Below the pieces are notes generated by a model. It worked only from the letters and a program-made list of their open reading frames with translations. It made no database searches and had not been told where the DNA came from. This document shows, piece by piece, positions 9,575-50,005 of a stretch of 64,000 bases of DNA (position 1 is its first letter; each line of letters starts with the position of its first letter). This stretch comes from an uncultured Thermococci archaeon (GTDB lineage Archaea > Methanobacteriota_B > Thermococci > Methanofastidiosales > B48-G16): assembly GCA_964595645.1 (NCBI GenBank), contig CAZQQT010000007.1, positions 1 through 64,000 of the forward strand. The letters are read 5' to 3'. A program made the position numbers and the translations under genes.

Positions 9575-10316
<742 letters not shown>

Positions 10317-10321
10317 CAGGG

Positions 10322-10831
10322 CTACGTGACATCAATATAGAAGTGTATTTCCTCTCCTGTTGAAAGTCGTATGGACACCTTGTGTCGCCCCGGAGAGTCG
10401 ATACGAAGTGATTCCTGTATTACTCTTTTTTCAGTATTCTCGGCTGAGAGTGTCCCTTCCTCCACTATTTCCTCATCCACAACCACAGAGTAGCGGTACT
10501 CCCATGCATGTCCGAGATGGTTGGTGATCTCGAAGGAGAAGGTGAACTGTTCATTGCTCGCTATTTTTTTGGGATACGCTGCGAGAAGTGCTGTTTCTTT
10601 AGAGTACTCAAGAATCGTATACCACTCGTTGTTGTACGAAAACACCCGATCCTCTGTTTTCACAGGCGTATCAAAATAGATTGTATACCCATCATTCGTC
10701 ACTGCCTCTTTTTTCACACAGACGAAGTTCAGCTCTGTGTACTCATTGGGATCGTTTTTGAACTCGTAGATAAAGAGTTGTGTAACAACGAGTCCGAGAA
10801 TGGATGCCAGAATAATTATTTTATACTTCAT
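10322..10831 (-). CDS. Membrane-anchored hypothetical protein (DUF1616-like C-terminus)
   Basis: N-terminal TM, YTEL motif, Ig-like beta-rich C-terminus. Confidence 0.5.
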   Translation of the reverse strand: MKYKIIILASILGLVVTQLFIYEFKNDPNEYTELNFVCVKKEAVTNDGYTIYFDTPVKTEDRVFSYNNEWYTILEYSKETALLAAYPKKIASNEQFTFSFEITNHLGHAWEYRYSVVVDEEIVEEGTLSAENTEKRVIQESLRIDSPGRHKVSIRLSTGEEIHFYIDVT

Positions 10832-10852
10832 GGTGTGAGTTGGATTCCATGG

Positions 10853-11236
10853 TTAAAAATCTTCTTCCACTGTACTGGGTGCGATACGATCGATGAGATC
10901 CTGAATATTGTCACTTTCAATCTCCACGTGGATTACACCAAGTTTTGCTTCATCGATGAAGTTCACCACGCCGACAAAGGCTGTCTGTTTGTTGATACAA
11001 AATTTGAGCGTGGTTCCGTAAATGCTGTGACGCAGCACAGCGCGGGCGGTGTCCCGTATTTTCTGGTACCTAAGCCTCTCTTCCAGAATATCGAGGCTTC
11101 GTTCCTCGGTGGACTCGCCGCTGAGATGATCGTCTTGTCGTGTGAGAGGGATATCAAATATATTCTGTACAGCCCGCCGTACCTTCTCCTCACTTTCTGT
11201 TGGGTATATGGGTACCGTGACACGCAGAGAGAACAT
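10853..11236 (-). CDS. UPF0201/DUF54 archaeal RNA-binding-domain protein
   Basis: YPTESEEKV..AV.NIF, QKIRDTAR, NKQTAFVG. Confidence 0.85.
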   Translation of the reverse strand: MFSLRVTVPIYPTESEEKVRRAVQNIFDIPLTRQDDHLSGESTEERSLDILEERLRYQKIRDTARAVLRHSIYGTTLKFCINKQTAFVGVVNFIDEAKLGVIHVEIESDNIQDLIDRIAPSTVEEDF

Positions 11237-32012: not shown

Positions 32013-34532
32013 TCACATCATTGATTTCACTGTATTCCAGTATATCTGTGCTACCCATTCTCTCCGTTCCGGTGATACCTCCTCAGAAGTAATGTATTTC
32101 TTCAGTCGTCGTGCACAGCCTCGTTTCGTCTCGGTCACACTGGGGTGCGTGCTCGCGATACAGATATTCAGCTCATCCACCATCTCAGCGATGTACTCCC
32201 CGTCGGAGATCGCCAGGATGCGCTCCCGTGCTTCGGGATCTTCTCTGTACTCCATCGCCGTACTTATTGCCAGCATGGAAACACAGTCAATGAGCCAGTC
32301 ACCTCCCCTTTCTGCGATGGTGTAGCCGAGATCGGTACTGTGCTCATCGAGAAGATCAATTCGCATCTGTGGGAGGCCTGTGGGAGCATCTATCCAGAAA
32401 CTGAGAAATCCAGAGGGGAAGGCGTTACTCCGCTCCAGTCCGATCCCTCCGAGTACTTCAGGTGCTGAAAATCCAGAAGGTCGTGTGATGACACTTCCTT
32501 CATCCCATTGGGGCTGCTGCAGTCCGAAGAGAATCTCAATCCTGTAGACCTGCCCTTCCAGTTCCTCAGGAATATCAAAAGCAAGAAGAAGACCGCTTTC
32601 ATCCTCGAAAAAAATAGACTCTGAGTGATACACAGTTTTTGTTACCTTTGTATGCTTGTTCTTATGGTCATCGTAGTACCCACGTGGTTTTCCTGGGTTG
32701 TTGTTCTTCCACTCTTTCCATTTATCCTCATCTTTTTTCTTTGCTTTCTCGAAAGCGTCATCCCAGCTATCCTTATCCAGACCGTTGAGCTTGTCTGCGA
32801 ACTCCTTCTCAAAATGGTCGTGTTCCTTTTTATTGGAGTCTGGATACGCGTATGAGTGGCTGTCCTCATCTGTCGCGGTGTAGACACCCTCCACATGCTC
32901 CTCGATATTGGCCGCGACTCCTCCTGAGAAACACTGCATCATCTCAACGAAGATATGGATCCCTGCCTCATCGATGGACTTCAAGATGTCTGCAAACTCA
33001 TCGTCCCAGAGCACCTCGCCACCCCAGAGGGTGATACCCTCGTGAAATCCGACCTCATCGTCCTTGTCACCGTCGTTGTTCCAGTCGACACCTCCATCAT
33101 CCTTATCGATATCGCCATCACCATCGGTATCCTCTCCGATCTTGTCCCATCCTCCGTTGTTCTTTTTGTAGGCGACAAACTTCGATCCGTCCCATTCCAC
33201 CTTTGTATCGTTGGTACCGTCACCGTCGGTGTCCCATTCATTGGTCTCGTACTGCCACGGGCCAAGGTTATTCATTTCCCAGCCCATGTGATCCTTGTCA
33301 CCGTCGTTATCAACATCCTGTCCCGTCTCGTACTCTTCGACACGGCCGTCACCGTTGAGATCGCTGCCCTTCAGCACCCAGGTACCATTCTCCCGCTTGT
33401 ACAGCTGGAGCCTGTTCGTCTGTTTGTCCAGATGGACGAACCAGGCCTCTCCCTTGTTATTTACCCACTGTTGGCTCTCTCGATGTGCTTTCTTTCTGCA
33501 GTCGATCCGTATTTCTTTTTCCGGATACGTTTTTCCTATACTCTCCGAGGATCGTCCCCCGGTGTAGCCAGCGGCGGGATTATACCCTGCGCCGTGATCG
33601 GTGACAAATACTGCCAGCGTGGAACTCGGGGACATCTTATCTGGATATCCTCCCATAACCTCCTCAATTTTATCCTTCGTTGCCGGGTAATCCACGATAT
33701 TTTTTCCATCGAGGATGATTGGCTCGCCGTTGTTATAGAATACATCGATTTCGTCATCCGAAAGCCCAAGCTCTCGAAGTTTCTTGTATTTCGCTTTAAT
33801 ATCCTCCTCGTACCGCTCTTTTTGGTTGTTGTCATCGGCAGTGCCACAGATAATTGTTCCCCTGTCACCTCCGCTGTCTGAGCCTTCTCCATTCAGCGCA
33901 AATCCTAGTGATCCTTCTTGCACGATAGAGGATGGAAACAACATGCTTTTCCCTCCGTAGTCCTCTGTGAGCACATGGTATCGCTCTACGGTGATCAGTG
34001 GCGTGGGGTGGAGAGTAAATGTACCGTATGTGTCAGAAAAGTTCTTTACCTCGCCGTACACAAGAATCTCTGCACCGTCCATTGTATACGGAGGCAGTTC
34101 TCCATCGAGTCTAATAAACGAATGGGCAGGAAGTATTGTGTTCGCAAGAAGAGAGCTGTAATCCAGGACTAAAAATCCAACGCCATCATTGGTCGTTCTC
34201 TCGTCGCCGTACACCCCTAACGTCCAGGTTTTCGTTCCGAAATACTCATCGAGCATGAACGTGAGTCGAGGAACAGAGGTAATCTCTTCTAGGGTTAACG
34301 GTGGCAACTCCGTAGGTTTCGAAGGCTCCTCAGATTCTTCTTCCACGGCCGGTTGAGTCTGTTCGGGTTGTGCTGCTTTCTGTGGTGTTTCAGTCTGTCC
34401 AGGCTCCGCTGTTTTTTCGGGTGTGTCAGTGATTGTTGGTTCTATCGTTTCCGATGGTTCTCCTCCGATGCATCCTACGACAATTATTACAAGAAACAGT
34501 GGCATTATAAGATTAATGTATCTCTTTTGCAT
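32013..34532 (-). CDS. Lipoprotein with clan CD (caspase/legumain-like) cysteine peptidase domain and DxDGDG Ca-binding loops
   Basis: Lipobox VVGC; ATK..I, VFVTDHG and MQCFSGG catalytic motifs; five Dx[DN]xDG motifs. Confidence 0.7.
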   Translation of the reverse strand: MQKRYINLIMPLFLVIIVVGCIGGEPSETIEPTITDTPEKTAEPGQTETPQKAAQPEQTQPAVEEESEEPSKPTELPPLTLEEITSVPRLTFMLDEYFGTKTWTLGVYGDERTTNDGVGFLVLDYSSLLANTILPAHSFIRLDGELPPYTMDGAEILVYGEVKNFSDTYGTFTLHPTPLITVERYHVLTEDYGGKSMLFPSSIVQEGSLGFALNGEGSDSGGDRGTIICGTADDNNQKERYEEDIKAKYKKLRELGLSDDEIDVFYNNGEPIILDGKNIVDYPATKDKIEEVMGGYPDKMSPSSTLAVFVTDHGAGYNPAAGYTGGRSSESIGKTYPEKEIRIDCRKKAHRESQQWVNNKGEAWFVHLDKQTNRLQLYKRENGTWVLKGSDLNGDGRVEEYETGQDVDNDGDKDHMGWEMNNLGPWQYETNEWDTDGDGTNDTKVEWDGSKFVAYKKNNGGWDKIGEDTDGDGDIDKDDGGVDWNNDGDKDDEVGFHEGITLWGGEVLWDDEFADILKSIDEAGIHIFVEMMQCFSGGVAANIEEHVEGVYTATDEDSHSYAYPDSNKKEHDHFEKEFADKLNGLDKDSWDDAFEKAKKKDEDKWKEWKNNNPGKPRGYYDDHKNKHTKVTKTVYHSESIFFEDESGLLLAFDIPEELEGQVYRIEILFGLQQPQWDEGSVITRPSGFSAPEVLGGIGLERSNAFPSGFLSFWIDAPTGLPQMRIDLLDEHSTDLGYTIAERGGDWLIDCVSMLAISTAMEYREDPEARERILAISDGEYIAEMVDELNICIASTHPSVTETKRGCARRLKKYITSEEVSPERREWVAQIYWNTVKSMM

Positions 34533-34970
34533 TTAACCACTTTTATAGCCAATTATTTCTATATTTAACTTGCGTATATTTATACTTTTCTGTTTCTAAA
34601 AATATAAAAATCTGCAAACACTCTTTGTAAAATATAAGGGGAAATAATAACCGAAGAAGTATCAAATTCTCCCAAAAGATGTTTTGGCCCAAAAATGGGA
34701 GAGAAAGGCCTACATAACGAGTGTTAACGTGAAAATACTCCTAAAAAGTAAATGATAATTTTTTATTCTTTCAAAAATCTTCTCAGAAGTACAGATACTA
34801 TCAGAAGCGAAACTGTGTAACTTGCAAGGTACCCTATGAAGTTCTGAGTGAGGTATAACGGTAGTGTCGCCAAAGTACTTGTAGATCGCTGTTACCTCGA
34901 TCATCCACTCACCGTACGCAAATGAGATGGTATGTTTATAAAATCTATTGGCTATATAAAAAAGAGTTAG

Positions 34971-36410
34971 TTAAGCTGCCTTCTTTAACCTCACATCAAA
35001 CCGTGCACCACCCATCCCGGAATCCTTAACCTCAATGCTCCCACCATACTTCTCAGCTATGTCCTTCGCAATGTACGTCCCTAAGCCGGATCCGGATTTC
35101 TCACCTTTTTTGAACCCTTGTTCAAATATCTTCTCTTTCATCTCATCAGATATTCCCTTCCCGTCATCTTCCACAGTGATAATACAACAATCTCCTTTGC
35201 TCTTCGTGCTTACTCTTATTTTATGACAGACGGCATGTGTTATCGCGTTTTCGATCAAGTTAGAAAAGAGCTCATCTAACAAACTCCCTCCTTTGACTGT
35301 ACATGGTAAAATTTGCACTTCAATCTCGATATCCTGGTCATGCAATCGATCAACGTGCTTCGAGACAACACTCTCTACCACACGGCGTATCTCAACTGCC
35401 CCTATTTCTTCTTGTGCCTCAATTTTACGCAGTGTGCTCACTTTTTCTATTATCTCTACAGCAGCGTTGATAGCCTTCGATATCTTTTCATGATATGTTT
35501 TTTCATTATCTGATTCTTTCTCCATTAGCTGTACGTATCCTTTCGCGACCTGCAGTTTGTTCTTCACATCGTGACGTAAAATAGAATGTAAGAATTCTTC
35601 TCTTTTTTCTGCTTGTTTGCGACGTTCAAGTTCCCTATTCGCTTTTTGAAGTTCACTACGCACCTCTTCCACCTTTCTGAGGATAGCTAAGACGGGGCGA
35701 TTTTCGATCCTCACTCCTCTCTTACGACTCTGCCAATTGAGATAAAAATACAGAAAGGGGAAGGCAAACACCGACAGAACGAGACGACTCAGTAACGTAC
35801 CTTGCATAATACTCAGATAGTTGGGAGTCCCGAAAAATGCGCCTGTGTTGAACAACGCGACGTCAAGCACCATAACTCCCAGAAGTGTCAGATACGCTCT
35901 AAGCCATGTTGTGATTTTTAGTTTCGGTTTGCCCAGCACCTCCCACATCATCGCCAAGAAAACGAGATCGATGATGGTCGTGAGTACAGATGCCGTGTTA
36001 ATACGTAAACTGGGGGTTGGAATATAGTTAAGAAGTGCACTACTCGAAAGATCCATCTGTAGGTGTAACGCTGCCGCGATGATAGGAACGAGAGCAGAGA
36101 TTCCAGCGACTGTGAGAATTGCACACTGCGTTGATCGCGGTCCATCAAACACGTACACGACAAAGACCCCAAGCAGAAGTGCGGTGTAGAACACGGTGGA
36201 ACCTACCATGAACGTAATGCCAGCTACTTCCACTTGCACACCGGCATCAGTCGTCCAGGACATAATCGCTGTAATACCACCCAATAGCGCATAGAAAGGT
36301 CCTAACCCAGCACGGTGACGGAGTGAATGAACCCATAGAAACAATAAATAAACTGAAATAGCCTCGATGATCAGGATAATAAGAGCGATATTCAAAAGGA
36401 TCCCTCCCAA
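34971..36410 (-). CDS. Membrane histidine kinase with Vut_1/YhhQ-like sensor domain
   Basis: Multi-TM N-terminal half; ILRHDVKN H-box, NLIENAI, EDDGKGI, GSGLG. Confidence 0.88.
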   Translation of the reverse strand: MGGILLNIALIILIIEAISVYLLFLWVHSLRHRAGLGPFYALLGGITAIMSWTTDAGVQVEVAGITFMVGSTVFYTALLLGVFVVYVFDGPRSTQCAILTVAGISALVPIIAAALHLQMDLSSSALLNYIPTPSLRINTASVLTTIIDLVFLAMMWEVLGKPKLKITTWLRAYLTLLGVMVLDVALFNTGAFFGTPNYLSIMQGTLLSRLVLSVFAFPFLYFYLNWQSRKRGVRIENRPVLAILRKVEEVRSELQKANRELERRKQAEKREEFLHSILRHDVKNKLQVAKGYVQLMEKESDNEKTYHEKISKAINAAVEIIEKVSTLRKIEAQEEIGAVEIRRVVESVVSKHVDRLHDQDIEIEVQILPCTVKGGSLLDELFSNLIENAITHAVCHKIRVSTKSKGDCCIITVEDDGKGISDEMKEKIFEQGFKKGEKSGSGLGTYIAKDIAEKYGGSIEVKDSGMGGARFDVRLKKAA

Positions 36411-36548
36411 TATCTATGATAATAACTTCTACCAAAATAGACAGATACCATACACGTATTCATCTTTAAATTTTCTATCTCACTATCAACGACGTTTGTA
36501 GTAGGTTCTCTTTCTTTTGGGAGATTTTCTTCTTCGTACATTATCCAT

Positions 36549-36890
36549 TCACCCATACCGTTCCACTTCCTCCACCATCTCGTCGAGATCGAAGGGTTTG
36601 TGGAGGAATCCTACGGCCCCTTTCTCCAGCGCCTCCTCCCTGATGGTAGGATCCGCACTGGCGAACAGGATCTTCACATCGTCCATGGCCCAGATCTCCT
36701 CGGCAACCTGGATTCCATCCTTCCCGTGCATCCGGTAGTCCATGACCACGAGATCGTACTCGTGTGCTGCCACCATCTCCAGGCCCGTCTCCCCGTCGAT
36801 GGCGATGTCCACCGCGTGGCCCACGGACTCGAGGATATCCTTGAAGAGGGTGAGTACCTCCATCTCGTCGTCGATAATGAGGATTCTCAT
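36549..36890 (-). CDS. Stand-alone response regulator receiver
   Basis: ILIIDD, MDYRM, DG, SA, KPF. Confidence 0.93.
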   Translation of the reverse strand: MRILIIDDEMEVLTLFKDILESVGHAVDIAIDGETGLEMVAAHEYDLVVMDYRMHGKDGIQVAEEIWAMDDVKILFASADPTIREEALEKGAVGFLHKPFDLDEMVEEVERYG

Positions 36891-38986
36891 TCACTCACCG
36901 TCGGGATACTGAGGATGACCTCAGTTCCATTCTCGTGGGAGTGGATATCGAGCTCTCCGCCGTAGTGATCGAGGATCTTCTTCACGAGGTAGAGCCCCAT
37001 GCCCGTGCGTTTGGAGAGGGTCTCGAGGTTCTCGAGGATATCGGTTCGTTTCTGCTCCGAGATGCCGATGCCGTAATCACGGATGTTGATATCGTACATT
37101 CCATCTCTCTTCTTCACGGAAATGTCAATCCGTACCGGTTCGTGAAATGTATACTCCACAGCGTTCTCAAGCACGCTAAAAAGTACCTCGTCGAGGTAGA
37201 CGTTGGCATTCACTTCGGGCTCATCCACCTTCACATTGATCTCGAGTTCCCGATCAAAATGCTCATGGACTCGTTCGATGGATCGTTCCAGCACATCATC
37301 GAGGCGTATTCTCTCTGTAGGTTTCTCTTTGATATTTTTCAGTATCTGAATGCTTTCTGCCAGTCGTTTTGCCTTCATGACCGCTTTTTTTGCATTCTCT
37401 ACATTCTTTTCTATGGTTTCTTTATCTTCCGCTTCCCTGAGAAGATGAAGGTACCCGAGCATGACCTGATTGAGGTTCCCCATATCATGAGCGAGGACAT
37501 CTGCGTAGAACTCCGCTTCCTCTCGTGCCTTTTTTCGTTCCGTAATGTCCATAATATTCCCAATCACTCGTACTATCTGACCATCTTTTATTATCGCTTG
37601 ACTAATTGTCCGTACCCACATGTCACGACCCTGGGCATTCTGGAACCGTACCTCGAGATCATAACCTTCTCCGGTATCTAATAAATGCTCAAAGGCATTC
37701 TTAACCTTGGAACGATCTTCGGGATGATAACATTTCAAACTTTCTTCGATATTATCTATTGAACCAGCTACAGGAAAGCCATGGATGCGGTAAACTTCAT
37801 CGGTCCATACCATAGTTTTGGTCTTCAGATCGTACTCCCATCCCCCTATCTTGGATATCTTCTGGGTCCGTTTGAGCAGATCGCGATTCTTTTGTAGCTC
37901 CTGTTCAGCCTTTTTTCGCTCGGTGATATCCATTCCAGAACTTAATGTTCCTATAATTTCCCTCTGTTCATCTTTTAGAATGGAATTGTGCCATACAATA
38001 ATTTTCTCCTTGCCGTTTTTAGTTAGAACTGGATTTTCGAAATATTCAAAACCATCAGTAATGTTGGTGATAATTTCTTGAAAAACATTCCAAATTTCTT
38101 CTCTTTCCCGTTCAGGGATAAAATTTTCAAACCAGTTCTTCCCGATAATCTCTTCCTTGTCGTACCCCAGAACTTCGGATGCTTTCCTATTGGCCTGTAT
38201 AACGTTGCCATTCCGATCTATAACTACCATCATTACCTCTGCAGTTTCCAGATAGTTCTGTGCTCTATCCCTCTCCCTCGTTAATTTTCTTTTGGCCTCC
38301 TTTTCTCTCCGTTTCATCTGCGTTCGTCGAATTATTTCTTTCTTCATTTTTTCACAGTGTTCCCACGTCACCTTTCCTCTCAATTTGGCAGTAAAGAGGG
38401 AAGGAGGCATGTAGTATGGGTTCCAATGTAGGTCATCGTAAATAATCACATAAGGGTGTGTTCGGATCACGTCCACCAGTATCTCAGGTGAGAACTTCTT
38501 CTCATTGTACTGACAAAGCGCTACAACTTTACTGTCAGGAAGAAACTCATTAAGTTTAGACTCATACTCCATCAGCCTTTCAACTCCGGGCATATCGCTA
38601 AAGAACCACGTCATCTCACCGGTTAGTCTCAGCCCGGCATACCCCTCCTCTAATGCTTCATTCTGGGCATTTTCCAGTAACCTAATCATTTTATGAGGAT
38701 CAAAATAACCGTTCTTTAGATAAGACTCGCTTTTAGTCATGAACACAAACTGATCTGATTTCCTCCATTCTTCCACATTAAATCCTTCACGCTTAAATGC
38801 GTCCACAATCTCCTCTTTAGTCCTATCATCGACGATATAAAGACATTTCTCGTTTTTCTTTATACCCAAAGACATGAACAACGAGAGTATGGAGAGTTGT
38901 TCCTCTTTATTTCTATAGATATTGCACATGTGGCTGCCTAAATCCTGTTTTTCAAACTCTTTTCGCAGCTCCTCACTAACTTCCAT
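36887..38986 (-). CDS. MEDS-PAS-PAS histidine kinase
   Basis: MEDS (H.CNIY, RLTGEMTW, LCQY, RTHP), two PAS ending DITERK, LAHDMGN H-box, DYGIGI, GMGL. Confidence 0.92.
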   Translation of the reverse strand: MEVSEELRKEFEKQDLGSHMCNIYRNKEEQLSILSLFMSLGIKKNEKCLYIVDDRTKEEIVDAFKREGFNVEEWRKSDQFVFMTKSESYLKNGYFDPHKMIRLLENAQNEALEEGYAGLRLTGEMTWFFSDMPGVERLMEYESKLNEFLPDSKVVALCQYNEKKFSPEILVDVIRTHPYVIIYDDLHWNPYYMPPSLFTAKLRGKVTWEHCEKMKKEIIRRTQMKRREKEAKRKLTRERDRAQNYLETAEVMMVVIDRNGNVIQANRKASEVLGYDKEEIIGKNWFENFIPEREREEIWNVFQEIITNITDGFEYFENPVLTKNGKEKIIVWHNSILKDEQREIIGTLSSGMDITERKKAEQELQKNRDLLKRTQKISKIGGWEYDLKTKTMVWTDEVYRIHGFPVAGSIDNIEESLKCYHPEDRSKVKNAFEHLLDTGEGYDLEVRFQNAQGRDMWVRTISQAIIKDGQIVRVIGNIMDITERKKAREEAEFYADVLAHDMGNLNQVMLGYLHLLREAEDKETIEKNVENAKKAVMKAKRLAESIQILKNIKEKPTERIRLDDVLERSIERVHEHFDRELEINVKVDEPEVNANVYLDEVLFSVLENAVEYTFHEPVRIDISVKKRDGMYDINIRDYGIGISEQKRTDILENLETLSKRTGMGLYLVKKILDHYGGELDIHSHENGTEVILSIPTVSE

Positions 38987-42999: not shown

Positions 43000-43373
43000 A
43001 GATTAGAAAAAGTATAGATGAGCTGCAAAAAATAGACCTTAGTGTGGAATGTCCCGAATGCGGGAGAAAAATACGAATTAAAGAGGAAATCGATCTTGAA
43101 GAGGGCTTTCAGGATCCAACATCAATCACAGACATATTCGAATCAATGCTGCTCCAGTGTTCCTGTGGAAATGAGTTTTTTGGAGCGGAAACAAAGGAAA
43201 GTGATCTCATAGATGACCTCGTGGATATACTCATCGAACTCAAGCATGACGGGAAAGTCTCTTACGACGATGGAATATTTTGTCTTGATATAGGCATGAT
43301 TGAAGGCCTGAAATATCTGAAAAAGCTGAAAGATCTTGGAGAAAAATACGACAGGGGTGATATCTTTGAGTAA
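42996..43373 (+). CDS. Hypothetical zinc-binding protein
   Basis: CPECG and CSCG motifs; ATGA overlap with the regulator gene. Confidence 0.65.
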   Translation: MKIRKSIDELQKIDLSVECPECGRKIRIKEEIDLEEGFQDPTSITDIFESMLLQCSCGNEFFGAETKESDLIDDLVDILIELKHDGKVSYDDGIFCLDIGMIEGLKYLKKLKDLGEKYDRGDIFE

Positions 43374-44919
43374 CGCAAAAATCGCAGAAAAACTCTGCAA
43401 CAGAGTAGCATTTGTGTTTCTAGCACTCTGGTTTATTGTCCAGGTGACGGATATACTCGGAACGTACGAGTATCCTGCGTACTTCCTTGGGCTTGTGTTC
43501 CTGTTCTTCCTCGCAGGTTCTATCTTCGGAGGCATGAAATACAGAGCAACGGTGAAAAAGGTAGCGTACGGCATCGCCAAGGCCACCTTCCTTATCTGGC
43601 TGTTCATAAAAATTGGCGGCCATTTTGACTGGGTGGGATTCACCACACCGCTCATCCTTGGAGAGTGGTCATGGACATGGATCGAATACTCCCAGTACGT
43701 CATCATCGCGTTTTTCGCCTCGATACTCATCGGGTACACCGCTGGAAAACACAAGCGGGGCATCAGAACGGTGATGTATGGAATTGGCTTTGTGGGTATC
43801 GCGTTCTGGATCTTCGTAAAACTCCTGGATCTCATTCCAGAGTACCAGACGGCAATTCTCATTGGAAGCATCGGCGCCGTGGCCATCGGGTATGTTGCCG
43901 GTGTGTTTGAAGAAGAACGTCGGTTCCGATGGGTCCATGAAGTTGAGGAGGCTGAAGAGATCCACGAACCGAAGATACAGGAAGAAGCTCAGGTGCTCAC
44001 CGACGACTGCGAGATAAAAAAGGGAAAAACGACGTTTACTATGGATAAGGGTAGTATATTCGTGCCCATCGCCAACGGAGAGGAAATCGGTGGTGTGTTC
44101 TTTGGACAGGGATCCTACGTGGTTGATGCTGAGGTAAAAAAGTACATCAACGTCTTCCAGGGCATCACCGCCCTCACCGGAAAAAAGTGGAATGCCACGA
44201 AAAAGAACATCAAGCTGCAGAGTGCGGAAGACAAAGATTTTGATACTATGGGGCTGAAAAAAGAGGAAATCTTCGATCTCGCGCGGATACAAATAGAAGA
44301 ACGAGAATGGAAGAAAATAGGGAAGAAATTCAAGAAAAATGTAACAAACTTTGAAATGCCCTTCATCAAGGTACGAGAATCCGAAGACGGAGAGTACGTG
44401 AAGGTAGGACCCATCGAGGTAGTCGGGAAAGGAAAAGGATCGAGAGTGAAGATGGGCCCCTTCACCTTCAACGAAGGCATGGACATCGAATGGGAAAACA
44501 GACGACTCTACGATCTCTCCGCCAAGATACGTACAAAAGACAAGGAAATTTCGTTGAAAGTAAAGGATGACAGGGCAACGCTACGGGAAGACGACAGACT
44601 GGTGGTGTCCACACCGGGAAAAGTTATCGTCGAGGATGGTGACGTAAAACTGAAGATCAAGGGGGGCAAGAGGATCCTCAAAACGAATGATCTTAAAATA
44701 TACGAGCGCGAGGAGAAAACAATCCTCAAAACACCCAAAACAAAGATTGTGCTCAACGACGAGGTAAAGATCACACAGAACGGCAAGATGCGGACACTGA
44801 AAAATCCGAGAATGCGTAGAGAGCTGCAGGACGCGATTGACAAGCTCATACGAGATGCTTTAGACAAAAAAGAGATGGAAGAACTGGACGACCTCCTAAC
44901 ACGACTGGAAAAAGAGTAA
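43366..44919 (+). CDS. Membrane protein (about 6 TM) with long beta-rich cytoplasmic or external C-terminus
   Basis: Hydrophobic N-terminal third; TTG start after GGTGA. Confidence 0.7.
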   Translation: MSNAKIAEKLCNRVAFVFLALWFIVQVTDILGTYEYPAYFLGLVFLFFLAGSIFGGMKYRATVKKVAYGIAKATFLIWLFIKIGGHFDWVGFTTPLILGEWSWTWIEYSQYVIIAFFASILIGYTAGKHKRGIRTVMYGIGFVGIAFWIFVKLLDLIPEYQTAILIGSIGAVAIGYVAGVFEEERRFRWVHEVEEAEEIHEPKIQEEAQVLTDDCEIKKGKTTFTMDKGSIFVPIANGEEIGGVFFGQGSYVVDAEVKKYINVFQGITALTGKKWNATKKNIKLQSAEDKDFDTMGLKKEEIFDLARIQIEEREWKKIGKKFKKNVTNFEMPFIKVRESEDGEYVKVGPIEVVGKGKGSRVKMGPFTFNEGMDIEWENRRLYDLSAKIRTKDKEISLKVKDDRATLREDDRLVVSTPGKVIVEDGDVKLKIKGGKRILKTNDLKIYEREEKTILKTPKTKIVLNDEVKITQNGKMRTLKNPRMRRELQDAIDKLIRDALDKKEMEELDDLLTRLEKE

Positions 44920-45002
44920 TCATCTTTTCTTCTTTTCTTTTTTGTATCTCTTCTGAGAATAGAGGAGACAAGATTTAAATATCTCCGAATGTTCATGTGC
45001 GT

Positions 45003-45704
45003 ATGAAGAAGATAACTGCAGTGCTCATGATTTTCTCGATGCTTGCGGTGGGCTGTATCGGTGGGGGAGATGAACAGACCACCACGACAGCACCATCGAC
45101 TACTCCAGCCGTTCCTACTACTACTGCGGCTCCCACAGAAAAGTCGTTGGAGGATGTATTCACACCATTATACAAGGATAAAATGTGGGCAAAGCACATG
45201 GCGGCATCTGAGGGGCAGGAAATTCCTATTATCATGAGAATGTTCGATGAGGACGAGATGTACATTTTTGAAACAGAAGCGCCAGTACAGGGGATAAGAG
45301 CGGTAATCCAGGTATGGTACTCCGCAACAGGAGAGAGCATTCTGGAGGGCGAGCTGGTAAAATATGCGGTGAAGATGGATGAAACCGTATACTGTACGAA
45401 AGCGACCACAGCCCCGGCCCCGCTCCAGTATCCCGAAAAGTACAGCATGTATAGCGTTGTCAGGGAAACGACGTACACCACTCCCACGGGAAAAGAAGTA
45501 CCGGTTTTTGTGGTGAAGGATGGAACGGAGGAGTACTGGTTTTCCAGTGAGGTACCGTTCTCCATTGTAAAAATTATCTCCGACGGAGAAGAAATCCTGA
45601 TACTCAATGATTTTGGGTTCGATGCAGAAAGGGAAATATCACGAGAAGAAATAGAACACTGCCAGCCCATGGAGACACCTCCTCAGCAGACAACGAGTCC
45701 GTGA
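45003..45704 (+). CDS. Hypothetical lipoprotein
   Basis: Lipobox AVGC and Thr/Pro linker. Confidence 0.75.
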   Translation: MKKITAVLMIFSMLAVGCIGGGDEQTTTTAPSTTPAVPTTTAAPTEKSLEDVFTPLYKDKMWAKHMAASEGQEIPIIMRMFDEDEMYIFETEAPVQGIRAVIQVWYSATGESILEGELVKYAVKMDETVYCTKATTAPAPLQYPEKYSMYSVVRETTYTTPTGKEVPVFVVKDGTEEYWFSSEVPFSIVKIISDGEEILILNDFGFDAEREISREEIEHCQPMETPPQQTTSP

Positions 45705-47094: not shown

Positions 47095-47162
47095 GGGGAT
47101 GGGACATCAGCAATTTTTTAATCTATTTTATTACTTCTTTTTTTATATACTCCAGAAAAAGA
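47095..47162. repeat. Direct repeat copy B, overlapping the 3' end of the DUF6884-like gene
   Basis: ggggatgggacatcagcaattttttaatctattttattacttctttttttatatactccagaaaaaga. Confidence 0.85.
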
Positions 47163-47641
47163 CTGCCTTTCAGAGAAATCACGGGGGCGTGATGCTGTTT
47201 TGCCTCGTTAATCCCGCAGGGTATCGTCTCTGCACCCTGTATTTCTCTGTTCGTGAAAAACACTGACGGAATTGGAATATCTATTAAGAATTTTTCGATG
47301 GCAGTGAGATAATCTTCGCCGAGCAGAAAAAATACCTTTTCGTAGGTGTTTGTCTCGATTATTGATCGCAGTTGCTCCTCGATACCGAGATCCTCACTTC
47401 TTCTCCGTATCGCGTCTCTCCGCATCGTAGTGAAGCTCAGATCGTACGGTTCAATTCCCGTATCCTCATGAATGAGCCCGTACTTCGCAGAGAGAATGTA
47501 CCAGTCCACACTGTGGTAGTTCCGCAGAAGCTCGGTGCCTTGCTTCGTGAGGAGATGCTGGGTTCCCTGGTACAGCTCCGCAGCCCTCTCTTTTCCCTCT
47601 TTTTTCTTCTTGGTGCAGGATGAGACAACGAGAATATTCAT
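47123..47641 (-). CDS. DUF6884/YaaA-like protein
   Basis: MNILVVSSCTKKK, A.ELYQG, YILSAKYGLI, IEPYD; ATG 1 nt after the queC stop. Confidence 0.75.
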   Translation of the reverse strand: MNILVVSSCTKKKKEGKERAAELYQGTQHLLTKQGTELLRNYHSVDWYILSAKYGLIHEDTGIEPYDLSFTTMRRDAIRRRSEDLGIEEQLRSIIETNTYEKVFFLLGEDYLTAIEKFLIDIPIPSVFFTNREIQGAETIPCGINEAKQHHAPVISLKGSLFLEYIKKEVIK

Positions 47642-47642
47642 A

Positions 47643-48287
47643 TCACTCGTACTCGATGGGATCCTCGCACCCTGCCTTCTCAAACCCTTCCAGCCGGAGT
47701 GTACATGACTCGCACTCACCGCAGGCCTTGTCCGTGGCAAAGTAACAGCTCCACGTGTGTTCAAAGGGCACGCCGAGTTCTATCCCCTTTTGAATGATCT
47801 CCTGTTTACTCATCTCGGCCAGCGGTGTCTTCAAGGTGATATCCCCCCGTTTCGTTCCTTTCTCAATCAACTGTTGGAATGCCTCGAAGTACTGAGGCCG
47901 GCAGTCCGGATATCCAGAGAAATCCACGTAGTTTGCGCCGTAGAAAATGGCCTCTGCACCCACCACCTCGGCCCACGCCACGGCCAGTGAGAGGAAGATT
48001 GAGTTCCTGAAGGGCACGTAGGTACTCGGAATACCTGTGTCATCCCGCGTGACCTCGAGGTCATCTGTCAGCGCGGATCCACCTATCTCCTTTAGAAAGG
48101 CGAGATCGATGATCTTCAACTCTGCGTTGAAATGATCGGCGAGATGGGTGACGCACGCTTCTTCTTTTTCTACGGTGTTCTGCCCGTACGTGATAAAAAG
48201 CGCGTAGAGATCGTACCTTTCCCTCTGCGCGATGGCTGCGCAGACGGTAGAATCAAGTCCGCCCGACATCAACACAACAGCCTTCAA
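47643..48287 (-). CDS. queC: 7-cyano-7-deazaguanine synthase
   Basis: SGGLDS, YGQ, TYVPFRN, GYPDCR, TWSCY, CGECESC. Confidence 0.96.
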   Translation of the reverse strand: MKAVVLMSGGLDSTVCAAIAQRERYDLYALFITYGQNTVEKEEACVTHLADHFNAELKIIDLAFLKEIGGSALTDDLEVTRDDTGIPSTYVPFRNSIFLSLAVAWAEVVGAEAIFYGANYVDFSGYPDCRPQYFEAFQQLIEKGTKRGDITLKTPLAEMSKQEIIQKGIELGVPFEHTWSCYFATDKACGECESCTLRLEGFEKAGCEDPIEYE

Positions 48288-49057
48288 ATTGATCCCTCCG
48301 AGTAGACGTTATGGCGGTGAATGGACTCGTAGCTCGTGCAGGTAGCTGTTGCGTGACACCCGAACCGTTTTGACCGTTCGAGGATGCCGCGGGTCACATC
48401 CTCCACGAACTTCGGGTTTTCATGCATATCGCGGATAATCTTCGCCTCGTCCTCTGTTTTGAGCAGCGTGTAGACCCGGGAAGAGAAACTCTCCTCCACA
48501 ATGGATATCATCTCCTCAAGGGAGATCTCCTTCTCTAACGCACATGGGATCTCCAGTGTCGCCTTGGCCCGCTGTATATGCGTCTTCCCCGAGGTCTCCA
48601 GTGCGTGGGGGCAGAGCGTGTTGCCGATAACCTCGACCCGCAGGATTTTTCGCCACTCACCATTGTAGATCACGGTTACCTGGATATCGTGGACCTCGAT
48701 AGTGCACTTCTTCGACCGCGGTGTCTCCTCCTCGAGAGGAAGTGTTGAACTAAATGAGATCTCCGCCTTCTCGTACGGATGCTTCTCTCGCACCCGCTGG
48801 AGAATATCTCTGCCGAGATCCTCGAGAGAGTAGTGCTCCTCTTCGATCTCCTCCTCGAGACACGCAGTGATGGACTCAATCAGTCGGGACATATGGATTC
48901 CCTTTCTGTCCTCGGCAAGATCGATGTAGATATCGATCTCAGGGATATGTCTGTACTTCTTCCCGTCCCGCTTTATCTTAATGAGCGTTTTTAATTCTGT
49001 AATTCCAACTTTGTTGAGTTTTATCCGTTGATCCGGTGGTTTGTCCTGTGTATTCAT
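48284..49057 (-). CDS. folE2: GTP cyclohydrolase FolE2/MptA
   Basis: KGIHMSR, CP, H.QR, LLK..DE, PKFVED, ESIH.HN. Confidence 0.9.
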   Translation of the reverse strand: MNTQDKPPDQRIKLNKVGITELKTLIKIKRDGKKYRHIPEIDIYIDLAEDRKGIHMSRLIESITACLEEEIEEEHYSLEDLGRDILQRVREKHPYEKAEISFSSTLPLEEETPRSKKCTIEVHDIQVTVIYNGEWRKILRVEVIGNTLCPHALETSGKTHIQRAKATLEIPCALEKEISLEEMISIVEESFSSRVYTLLKTEDEAKIIRDMHENPKFVEDVTRGILERSKRFGCHATATCTSYESIHRHNVYSEGSI

Positions 49058-49674
49058 CTGAGATCACCTAATTTATGGAGCTGGGTGAGTATCCTAAGAT
49101 CGTGATCGATGGGATCTTCACGATAAATGGAAAAAAGCTTTTTGTACTGGAGCTCGTGGAAGTTTGGCTGCAGGATAAGCGGCACATCGAGATCTATCTG
49201 CCTCAGCACGTTTTTCACAAAGAGGTAGTCGTCTCTATCAGAGATAACGGCCTTGAGCTGTCCCTCCTCCATAGTGTCCAAAATTTTTTGAAGAATGGGA
49301 AGATCAATCTGCATCCCGCTACTCGGCGTCTTGAGATCCACGCTAACAAACTCGACATCTTTGATAACATCTTTATATATTGTTCCATTCGTCTCAAGTG
49401 CAACGTTATGGGGCAATGCCTCAACGAGAGGCGCAATATCCTGGAGAAGCGGCTCTCCACCGGTGATACATATCCAGTTCGTGGAGAAATCCTCTATTTC
49501 GTCCACGATATCGTCCAATGACACCTGATCTTCCCGGGTTCTTGCATAGGAGGTGTCACACCAGTTGCACCGAAGATTACACCCGGCGAGCCGTATGAAG
49601 CCCGTGGGCATGCCGCTCTGGAGTCCTTCACCGTTGAGAGAAAAGAAGATCTCACTCAGAAAGTACTTCTGCAT
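49054..49674 (-). CDS. queE: 7-carboxy-7-deazaguanine synthase (radical SAM)
   Basis: EIFFSLNGEG, CNLRCNWCDT, TGGEP, ETNG, QLHK. Confidence 0.95.
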   Translation of the reverse strand: MQKYFLSEIFFSLNGEGLQSGMPTGFIRLAGCNLRCNWCDTSYARTREDQVSLDDIVDEIEDFSTNWICITGGEPLLQDIAPLVEALPHNVALETNGTIYKDVIKDVEFVSVDLKTPSSGMQIDLPILQKILDTMEEGQLKAVISDRDDYLFVKNVLRQIDLDVPLILQPNFHELQYKKLFSIYREDPIDHDLRILTQLHKLGDLR

Positions 49675-50005
49675 AGTTGTGTCTCCCCTCCCAAACTTGT
49701 ACCGCGACCACCTTCTCCGTGTTTTTTCTGATCTCGTCGTAGATAGATCGCGCGATGTTCTCTACAGTAGGTGTATCGAAATACTCGTTGAGATCTGCGT
49801 GATCGTACCGTTCTACAATGGGGTTCACGATCTTTTTGACTTCATCAAAATCCATAACCATTCCCGATGCCACCTTTCCCTCCAAGGTAACCACGAGTTT
49901 GTACGTGTGACCGTGAAGGTTCTTGCACTTCCCTGCATGTTCCTTCACTCTATGGGCAGCATCAAAATAGAATACCTTGCTTACCTTCGTTCGCATATAA
50001 ATCAT
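49652..50005 (-). CDS. queD: 6-carboxytetrahydropterin synthase
   Basis: FDAAH, C.NLHGH, MVMDF, DH, PTVEN. Confidence 0.95.
   Translation of the reverse strand: MIYMRTKVSKVFYFDAAHRVKEHAGKCKNLHGHTYKLVVTLEGKVASGMVMDFDEVKKIVNPIVERYDHADLNEYFDTPTVENIARSIYDEIRKNTEKVVAVQVWEGRHNYAEVLSE

Follow-up and report, generated by a model that had tools for sequence, protein, structure and literature searches.

A VUPS-type sensor histidine kinase with a Vut_1/YhhQ-related membrane domain in an uncultured Methanofastidiosales archaeon

The gene at positions 34,971..36,395 (minus strand) of a 64,000-nucleotide stretch of DNA from an uncultured Thermococci archaeon (order Methanofastidiosales; assembly GCA_964595645.1, contig CAZQQT010000007.1; hereafter the window) is likely to encode a class I sensor histidine kinase of a type already catalogued as VUPS, in which a receptor domain derived from Vut_1/YhhQ transporters would control a HisKA–HATPase_c kinase, and which is an accessory gene probably obtained from bacteria. 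The first-pass annotation of this DNA had proposed that the sensor was transporter-derived and that it might respond to 7-deazaguanines. The first of these proposals is upheld by several lines of sequence comparison, whereas the second finds no support.

The open reading frame from 34,971 to 36,410 on the minus strand was confirmed in the window from the list of open reading frames. It offers two in-frame TTG codons as candidate starts, with 36,410 standing 15 nt upstream of 36,395. The start had previously been set at 36,410, and this is corrected here to the second TTG, the most likely start, on the basis of a Shine–Dalgarno-like GGAGG (36,403..36,407, minus strand) lying 7 nt upstream of it, a public gene call of 474 amino acids and the N-termini of the homologues. 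From 36,395, the gene comprises 474 codons and a stop. Two further signals were read from the same strand. An AT-rich TATA-like element, AAATTTAAAG, at 36,464..36,473 falls within the 153-nt spacer behind the preceding receiver gene and might conceivably be a promoter belonging to the kinase gene itself. A run of six T residues at 34,958..34,963, located 8 nt past the kinase stop codon, resembles an archaeal terminator. Downstream, the kinase gene is adjoined by an 839-aa secreted or lipoprotein-like ORF (32,013–34,532, minus strand) that contains many Asp-rich Dx[DN]xDG-like repeats, and for which no Pfam match was found at E ≤ 0.001.

The N-terminal part of the protein is matched by the Pfam model PF20973, “vitamin uptake-like sensor” (VUPS), over residues 24–224 (hmmscan; E 6.6e-17; 62.2 bits against a cut-off of 27; model positions 4–206 of 206), and the score in the genome-wide search was 63.7 bits. 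The protein is thus a VUPS member, with the cut-off passed over the full-length model and a membrane domain fused to a cytoplasmic output. The only other families matched by the sensor are TIGR00697 and Vut_1, both below their cut-offs. Polytopic membrane modules such as MASE, 5TMR-LYT and 7TMR-DISM follow the same logic, being placed directly upstream of a signaling helix and kinase. The window sensor is unrelated to them in sequence, and the Pfam scan returned no match to the MASE, 7TMR or 5TMR families, which the earlier annotation had named as possible refutations.

The kinase half is complete. In the Pfam hmmscan of the longer ORF (34,971–36,410), HisKA is matched at residues 276–332 and HATPase_c at residues 377–477. 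Counted from the start at 36,395, the membrane sensor occupies residues 1–225 (35,721..36,395), on the evidence of Pfam, AlphaFold models, hhalign and VIA-align. It is followed by a juxtamembrane hinge (RGVRIENRP) and signaling helix at residues 226–270 (35,586..35,720; alignments and model), the DHp/HisKA domain at residues 271–327 (35,415..35,585; Pfam E 1.7e-5; helical hairpin 234–293/298–327), and the HATPase_c catalytic domain at residues 372–472 (34,980..35,282; Pfam 79.9 bits; alpha/beta sandwich in the model), all on the minus strand. The position of the motif identifies His275 (35,571–35,573, minus strand) as the phospho-acceptor within the H-box RHDVKNK. All kinase boxes are intact: the H-box RH275DVKNK, N (NLIENA), G1 (DDGKG), F (FEQGF) and G2 (GSGLG). 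With HisKA and HATPase_c, every box, a DHp hairpin and a CA fold, the protein is a class I histidine kinase. A coiled coil had been reported as the link between sensor and kinase. The fusion itself is real, but the “coiled coil” is a single predicted helix of 60 residues (234–293). In alignments, R233 and P234 of the hinge are invariant, and the pattern VLAIL...E.R.EL..A..EI.RRK is common to VUPS proteins that carry different outputs.

The relationship of the sensor to the queuosine-precursor transporters is visible at several levels. The Vut_1-like motifs originally noted in the N-terminal ~225 amino acids are all present in the translation, where they can be read as VEVAGITFMVGSTVFYTALLLGVFVVYVFDGPR, LRINTAS, WLRAY and LDVALFNTGAFFG. 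Comparison with Vut_1 (PF02592) gave an end-to-end match (residues 72–222; model positions 5–151 of 152; E 9.6e-4) but one of 20.0 bits, below the cut-off of 27.2. Alignment of VUPS with the Vut_1 transporters of the archaeon’s relatives by hhalign gave a probability of 90.9% (E 1.1e-6, 164 columns), pairing the motifs RI..AS, WLR, D..F...AF.G and PF.Y. Some close VUPS homologs narrowly pass PF02592, at 28.9–31.1 bits. The queuosine-precursor transporter model of NCBIfam, TIGR00697, scores the window protein at 21.6 bits against a cut-off of 50.95; the real Vut_1 of a relative reaches 172. A protein-language-model look-up, in which VUPS clusters were excluded, returned Vut_1 for all three of the nearest clusters shown (scores 0.76–0.82), and serves as a lead only. 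Taken together, this evidence supports the sensor being a transporter-derived receptor domain and a remote homolog of Vut_1/YhhQ.

The window protein shares with the QPTR/YhhQ transporters (Vut_1, PF02592; COG1738; TIGR00697) a homologous six-helix core that carries the same four motifs, and a cytoplasmic C-terminus (PMC5372724). It differs from them in lying below both family cut-offs, in possessing an extra N-terminal helix, and in the replacement of most of the polar residues that are invariant in Vut_1. In addition, it is a 474-aa fusion to a kinase, whereas the true Vut_1 proteins of the relatives are stand-alone proteins of 190–230 aa.

The predicted structure extends this comparison. 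The AlphaFold model of residues 1–235 has a pLDDT of 73 and the full-length model a mean pLDDT of 80.7. Both contain seven membrane helices, a beta hairpin after helix 2 and the short hinge RGVRIENRP. A continuous helix from 234 to 293 bears His275, and the second DHp helix and the CA domain follow. By the positive-inside rule, the N-terminus of the sensor would lie outside the cell and the C-terminus inside. When the sensor model was compared with 48,161 PDB chains using VIA-align, 12 of the 17 top matches (Z 7–10.3) were ECF S-components, BtuM or CbiM. These S-component-type matches comprise BtuM, RibU, BioY, FolT, ThiT, PanT and CbiM, with 152–173 residues aligned from model residue ~26 onwards. 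The leading Z scores were 10.3 for BtuM, 10.1 and 9.7 for RibU, 9.3 for BioY and 8.7 for FolT (152–167 aligned residues), all below the caution level of ~13 that the tool sets for helical bundles. Foldseek found no match in the PDB at E ≤ 0.001; its best E-value was 0.16, and its weak top matches were again S-components. As the Z scores fall below the caution line and the Foldseek result is not significant, the claim on the fold depends on its agreement with the sequence evidence. A phmmer search of the sensor against PDB sequences returned a chance antibody match alone (E 0.68), and a YhhQ structure was not found in the phmmer, Foldseek or VIA-align searches of the PDB. The predicted fold resembles that of the ECF S-components and their solitary relatives (RibU, BioY, FolT, ThiT, PanT, BtuM), the best structural matches at an rmsd of ~4 Å. 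It differs from them in being only 6–14% identical, in lacking an EcfT/EcfA context and in its probable role as a receptor instead of in transport. Since the matches begin at model residue ~26, helix 1 is an addition to a six-helix S-component-like core. On the preferred reading, the seven-helix domain split off anciently from the Vut_1/YhhQ branch of solute binders with an ECF-S-component-like fold and was re-used as a receptor.

From this ancestry, it can be proposed that a small molecule would lodge in the helical bundle and that its occupancy would move the last membrane helix. This movement would travel through the conserved hinge (IENRP) and the 60-residue helix into the DHp domain, and autophosphorylation at His275 would thereby be altered. 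The phosphoryl group would then pass to a receiver. The simplest candidate is the single-domain REC protein whose gene lies just upstream, although any other among the seven REC domains of the genome could take this part. A very unlikely alternative is that the domain is a transceptor, which has kept its ability to transport a solute and signals the flux to the kinase. In favor of this, the Vut_1 core is retained over its full length, including all four shared motifs, and there is no other Vut_1 gene in the five VUPS-bearing genomes checked nor in the window genome. Against this, VUPS is always fused to signaling outputs, and its extra N-terminal helix and remodeled polar residues are unlike those of the transporters.

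The VUPS kinase gene comes last in a small signaling cluster, in which a MEDS-PAS-PAS kinase is followed by a single-domain receiver, the 153-nt spacer and the VUPS kinase. The first gene (36,887..38,986, minus strand) encodes a MEDS-PAS-PAS-histidine kinase of 699 aa (Pfam MEDS at 166.6 bits, PAS_3, PAS_9 and HATPase_c). The stand-alone receiver just upstream of the VUPS kinase, which the first-pass annotation had pointed out, is real: it is a 113-aa protein (36,549..36,890, minus strand; Response_reg at 83.5 bits) that keeps D7/D8, D51, S78 and K98 intact. Its gene shares 4 nt with the end of the MEDS-PAS-PAS kinase gene upstream, stop codon included, and is thus translationally coupled first to that kinase. 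The whole genome contains only seven receiver domains. The receiver is a candidate phosphoryl acceptor of the VUPS kinase, a pairing that is put forward as a guess. The composition of the receiver gene stands apart: its 342 nt have a GC content of 57.9% and a GC3 of 79.8%, compared with 43.2% GC for the genome and 43–45% for the flanking kinase genes, which is odd for a 342-nt gene that shares 4 nt with its neighbor. A MEDS partner common to the Hadarchaeota homolog was also considered and rejected. The 858-aa kinase upstream of that homolog matches the PAS-kinase part only and is devoid of MEDS.

The experimentally characterized members of Vut_1/COG1738 all transport preQ0/preQ1 or queuine (PMC5372724, PMC11130926). 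This raises the question of whether VUPS keeps the substrate specificity of YhhQ/QPTR and acts as a sensor for a 7-deazaguanine such as preQ0, preQ1, queuine or a related compound, thereby linking an external supply to gene regulation. Such a role is considered unlikely. It draws on the deazaguanine substrates of all characterized relatives and on VUPS being a true homolog of the Vut_1 family. The genome both makes and uses preQ0. The complete preQ0 operon that had been reported about 11 kb away does exist, at a distance of 11.2 kb from the kinase gene, and consists of queD (49,652–50,005), queE (49,054–49,674), folE2 (48,284–49,057) and queC (47,643–48,287); TGT-family genes are found on other contigs, including a 628-aa arcTGT-type TGT match. 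The genome also lacks a true Vut_1, while 19 of 33 order relatives have one above cut-off, and in one Desulfatiglandales-like lineage queC lies ~5 kb from the VUPS gene. Within the same region of the window, a DUF6884/YaaA-like gene (47,123–47,764, minus strand) directly follows queC in the preQ0 operon, and two ORFs of 527 and 225 aa (43,336–44,919, plus strand, and 44,993–45,670, minus strand) have no Pfam match.

The evidence against deazaguanine sensing comes from gene context and from the sensor itself. Between the kinase and the operon lie nine or more unrelated genes, on both strands, including the MEDS kinase, an aminotransferase, a PIN toxin and others. Of the 34 genomes in the order, 23 encode a strong QueC and every one yields a match that is weak or better, with or without VUPS, which occurs in just one; the preQ0 operon is thus a housekeeping one. 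In 80 VUPS loci, taken with flanks of at most 10 kb, FolE2, QueE and QueD are absent and QueC is present in three only, which are syntenic and belong to one small clade. Co-occurrence with que genes over this distance is thus missing from 77 of the 80, the three exceptions being a single lineage. No neighbor family occurs in more than 8 of the 80 loci, other signaling proteins aside. Rfam gave no match around the window gene or in 20 VUPS loci, and hence no preQ1 riboswitch. Association with queuosine or archaeosine genes or with preQ1 riboswitches is typical of QPTR (PMC5372724), and, one lineage aside, these VUPS loci do not display it. Within the sensor, the residues T72, D73, S76, E77, N164 and N165, invariant in the Vut_1 transporters of the archaeon’s relatives, are replaced in VUPS, mostly by hydrophobic residues. 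The same is true of S171, Q172, Q200, Y201, D211 and T212, while the alignments give VUPS an invariant polar set of its own. Residues invariant in VUPS include E11, H23, R26, D50, S66, Y70, D84, H111, R131, N133, D143, E152, R166, D178 and R204. The score of the protein against TIGR00697, less than half of the cut-off and far below that of a relative’s real transporter, points the same way. It is improbable that the tight VUPS clade, 63–75% identical from Desulfobacterota to Hadarchaeota, serves as a receptor for one specific diffusible small molecule common to anaerobic communities, possibly a 7-deazaguanine base such as preQ0, preQ1 or queuine as a legacy of the YhhQ ancestor. If this were true, the proteins of this clade would be the first cell-surface receptors known to recognize a precursor of a tRNA modification.

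Across the order, each of the six relatives whose QueC-like matches are no better than weak (E > 1e-7) has a true Vut_1 transporter, and in the window genome and its congener queC is present and Vut_1 absent. This pattern of queC and Vut_1 fits preQ0 salvage replacing synthesis.

The preferred reading, a receptor of the VUPS family derived from a solute binder, can be placed against the distribution of that family. The sensor has matches at E ≤ 0.001 in only 384 proteins among 1.84 billion cluster representatives. All of the matches scanned are VUPS domains fused to signaling domains (PAS, HisKA, HATPase_c, REC and Hpt), and fusions to PAS, GAF, HisKA, HisKA_3, REC, Hpt or a Cys-rich tail are found in hundreds of proteins. 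A word-index search returned 1021 relatives, many of them 66–75% identical across the sensor. The tight clade to which the window copy belongs is encoded in 234 of 185,579 species genomes. The majority are Thermodesulfobacteriota, with others in Verrucomicrobiota, Kiritimatiellota, Chloroflexota, Sumerlaeota, Hydrogenedentota, Acidobacteriota, Nitrospirota, Lentisphaerota, Bacteroidota and Hadarchaeota; a Thermoplasmata MAG protein represents a further archaeal lineage. Compared with the closest archaeal 475-aa kinases, the sensor half of the window protein is 68–72% identical and the kinase half 48–52%, which indicates that the sensor is under tighter constraint than the catalytic core.

The commonest VUPS form is a protein of ~340 aa that contains no kinase. 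It joins VUPS and the same hinge and helix to a Cys-rich tail (CxxC ... HxxCxxC), as in Desulfoferrobacter suflitae (positions 10,001–11,023 of the locus) and ~50 other loci. This tail reads LPICxxCKKIRDDxGYW...FSHGICPxC and was matched by no Pfam or NCBIfam model; it looks like a zinc-binding output module.

The degree of conservation invites another interpretation, that VUPS senses a property of the membrane (lipid composition, potential or a quinone-like carrier) or binds to another membrane protein as its partner, with conservation reflecting the interface. In the clade sensor, identity is 63–75% across 12 or more bacterial phyla and at least two archaeal lineages, a level that a ligand pocket by itself would not usually produce. 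The invariant residues are distributed among all seven helices and toward both faces of the membrane, and nearly all members of the family come from lineages of anaerobic sediments and digesters. Against this, clustering of the neighbors of 80 VUPS loci yielded no conserved gene that could encode a partner, the recurrent neighbors being only other signaling proteins, and the ancestry of the fold is one of solute binding; the interpretation is held to be unlikely.

Within its own order, the window gene is an isolated occurrence. VUPS is present in 1 of 34 genomes, i.e., the window genome only, and is absent from a 94%-complete genome of the same genus. A maximum likelihood tree was built from 91 sensor domains, with its root on long-branched and divergent members of the family that did not form one clean outgroup. 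It places the window copy in a kinase-type clade with 95% support. This clade consists of multi-domain proteins of Verrucomicrobiota, Chloroflexota, Sumerlaeota, Bacteroidota and Desulfomonile. Here, the window copy stands beside a group of archaeal 475-aa proteins from Hadarchaeota and Thermoplasmata MAGs that has 98% support, while the ~340-aa forms make up the other main clade. As the window copy nests among bacterial sequences, it was probably acquired by transfer, and its gene is probably an accessory one gained horizontally from bacteria. Transfer from bacteria into a few archaea is the most economical reading of the tree. The GC and GC3 of the kinase gene carry no signal of transfer (GC 44.7% against 43.2% for the genome).

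In comparison with other VUPS-HisKA-HATPase_c proteins of PF20973, the window protein has the same N-terminal domain, the same seven-helix layout and the same conserved hinge and helix leading into the kinase, and its close homologs are the 475-aa proteins of the two archaeal groups named above. Nothing essential differs, apart from the window copy being alone in its order and falling in an unusually conserved sub-clade. Since Pfam already catalogs the VUPS domain and this architecture, the design is not new, and the window gene is an ordinary copy of an already catalogued family. A literature search found no paper on the VUPS domain, PF20973, its ligand, its binding pocket or its phosphotransfer partner. 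The HD-GYP preprint of Galperin names MASE9 and MASE10 and makes no mention of VUPS, and the YhhQ papers make none of kinase fusions.

The single copy in the window matters little alone, and it is the family that is of interest. VUPS represents a clean case of a solute-binding transporter module that has been turned into a receptor, and one in which conservation across bacteria and archaea is higher in the sensor than in the kinase. The ligand of VUPS would reveal a signal to which many of the sulfate reducers and syntrophs of anoxic sediments, together with some of the archaea there, respond.
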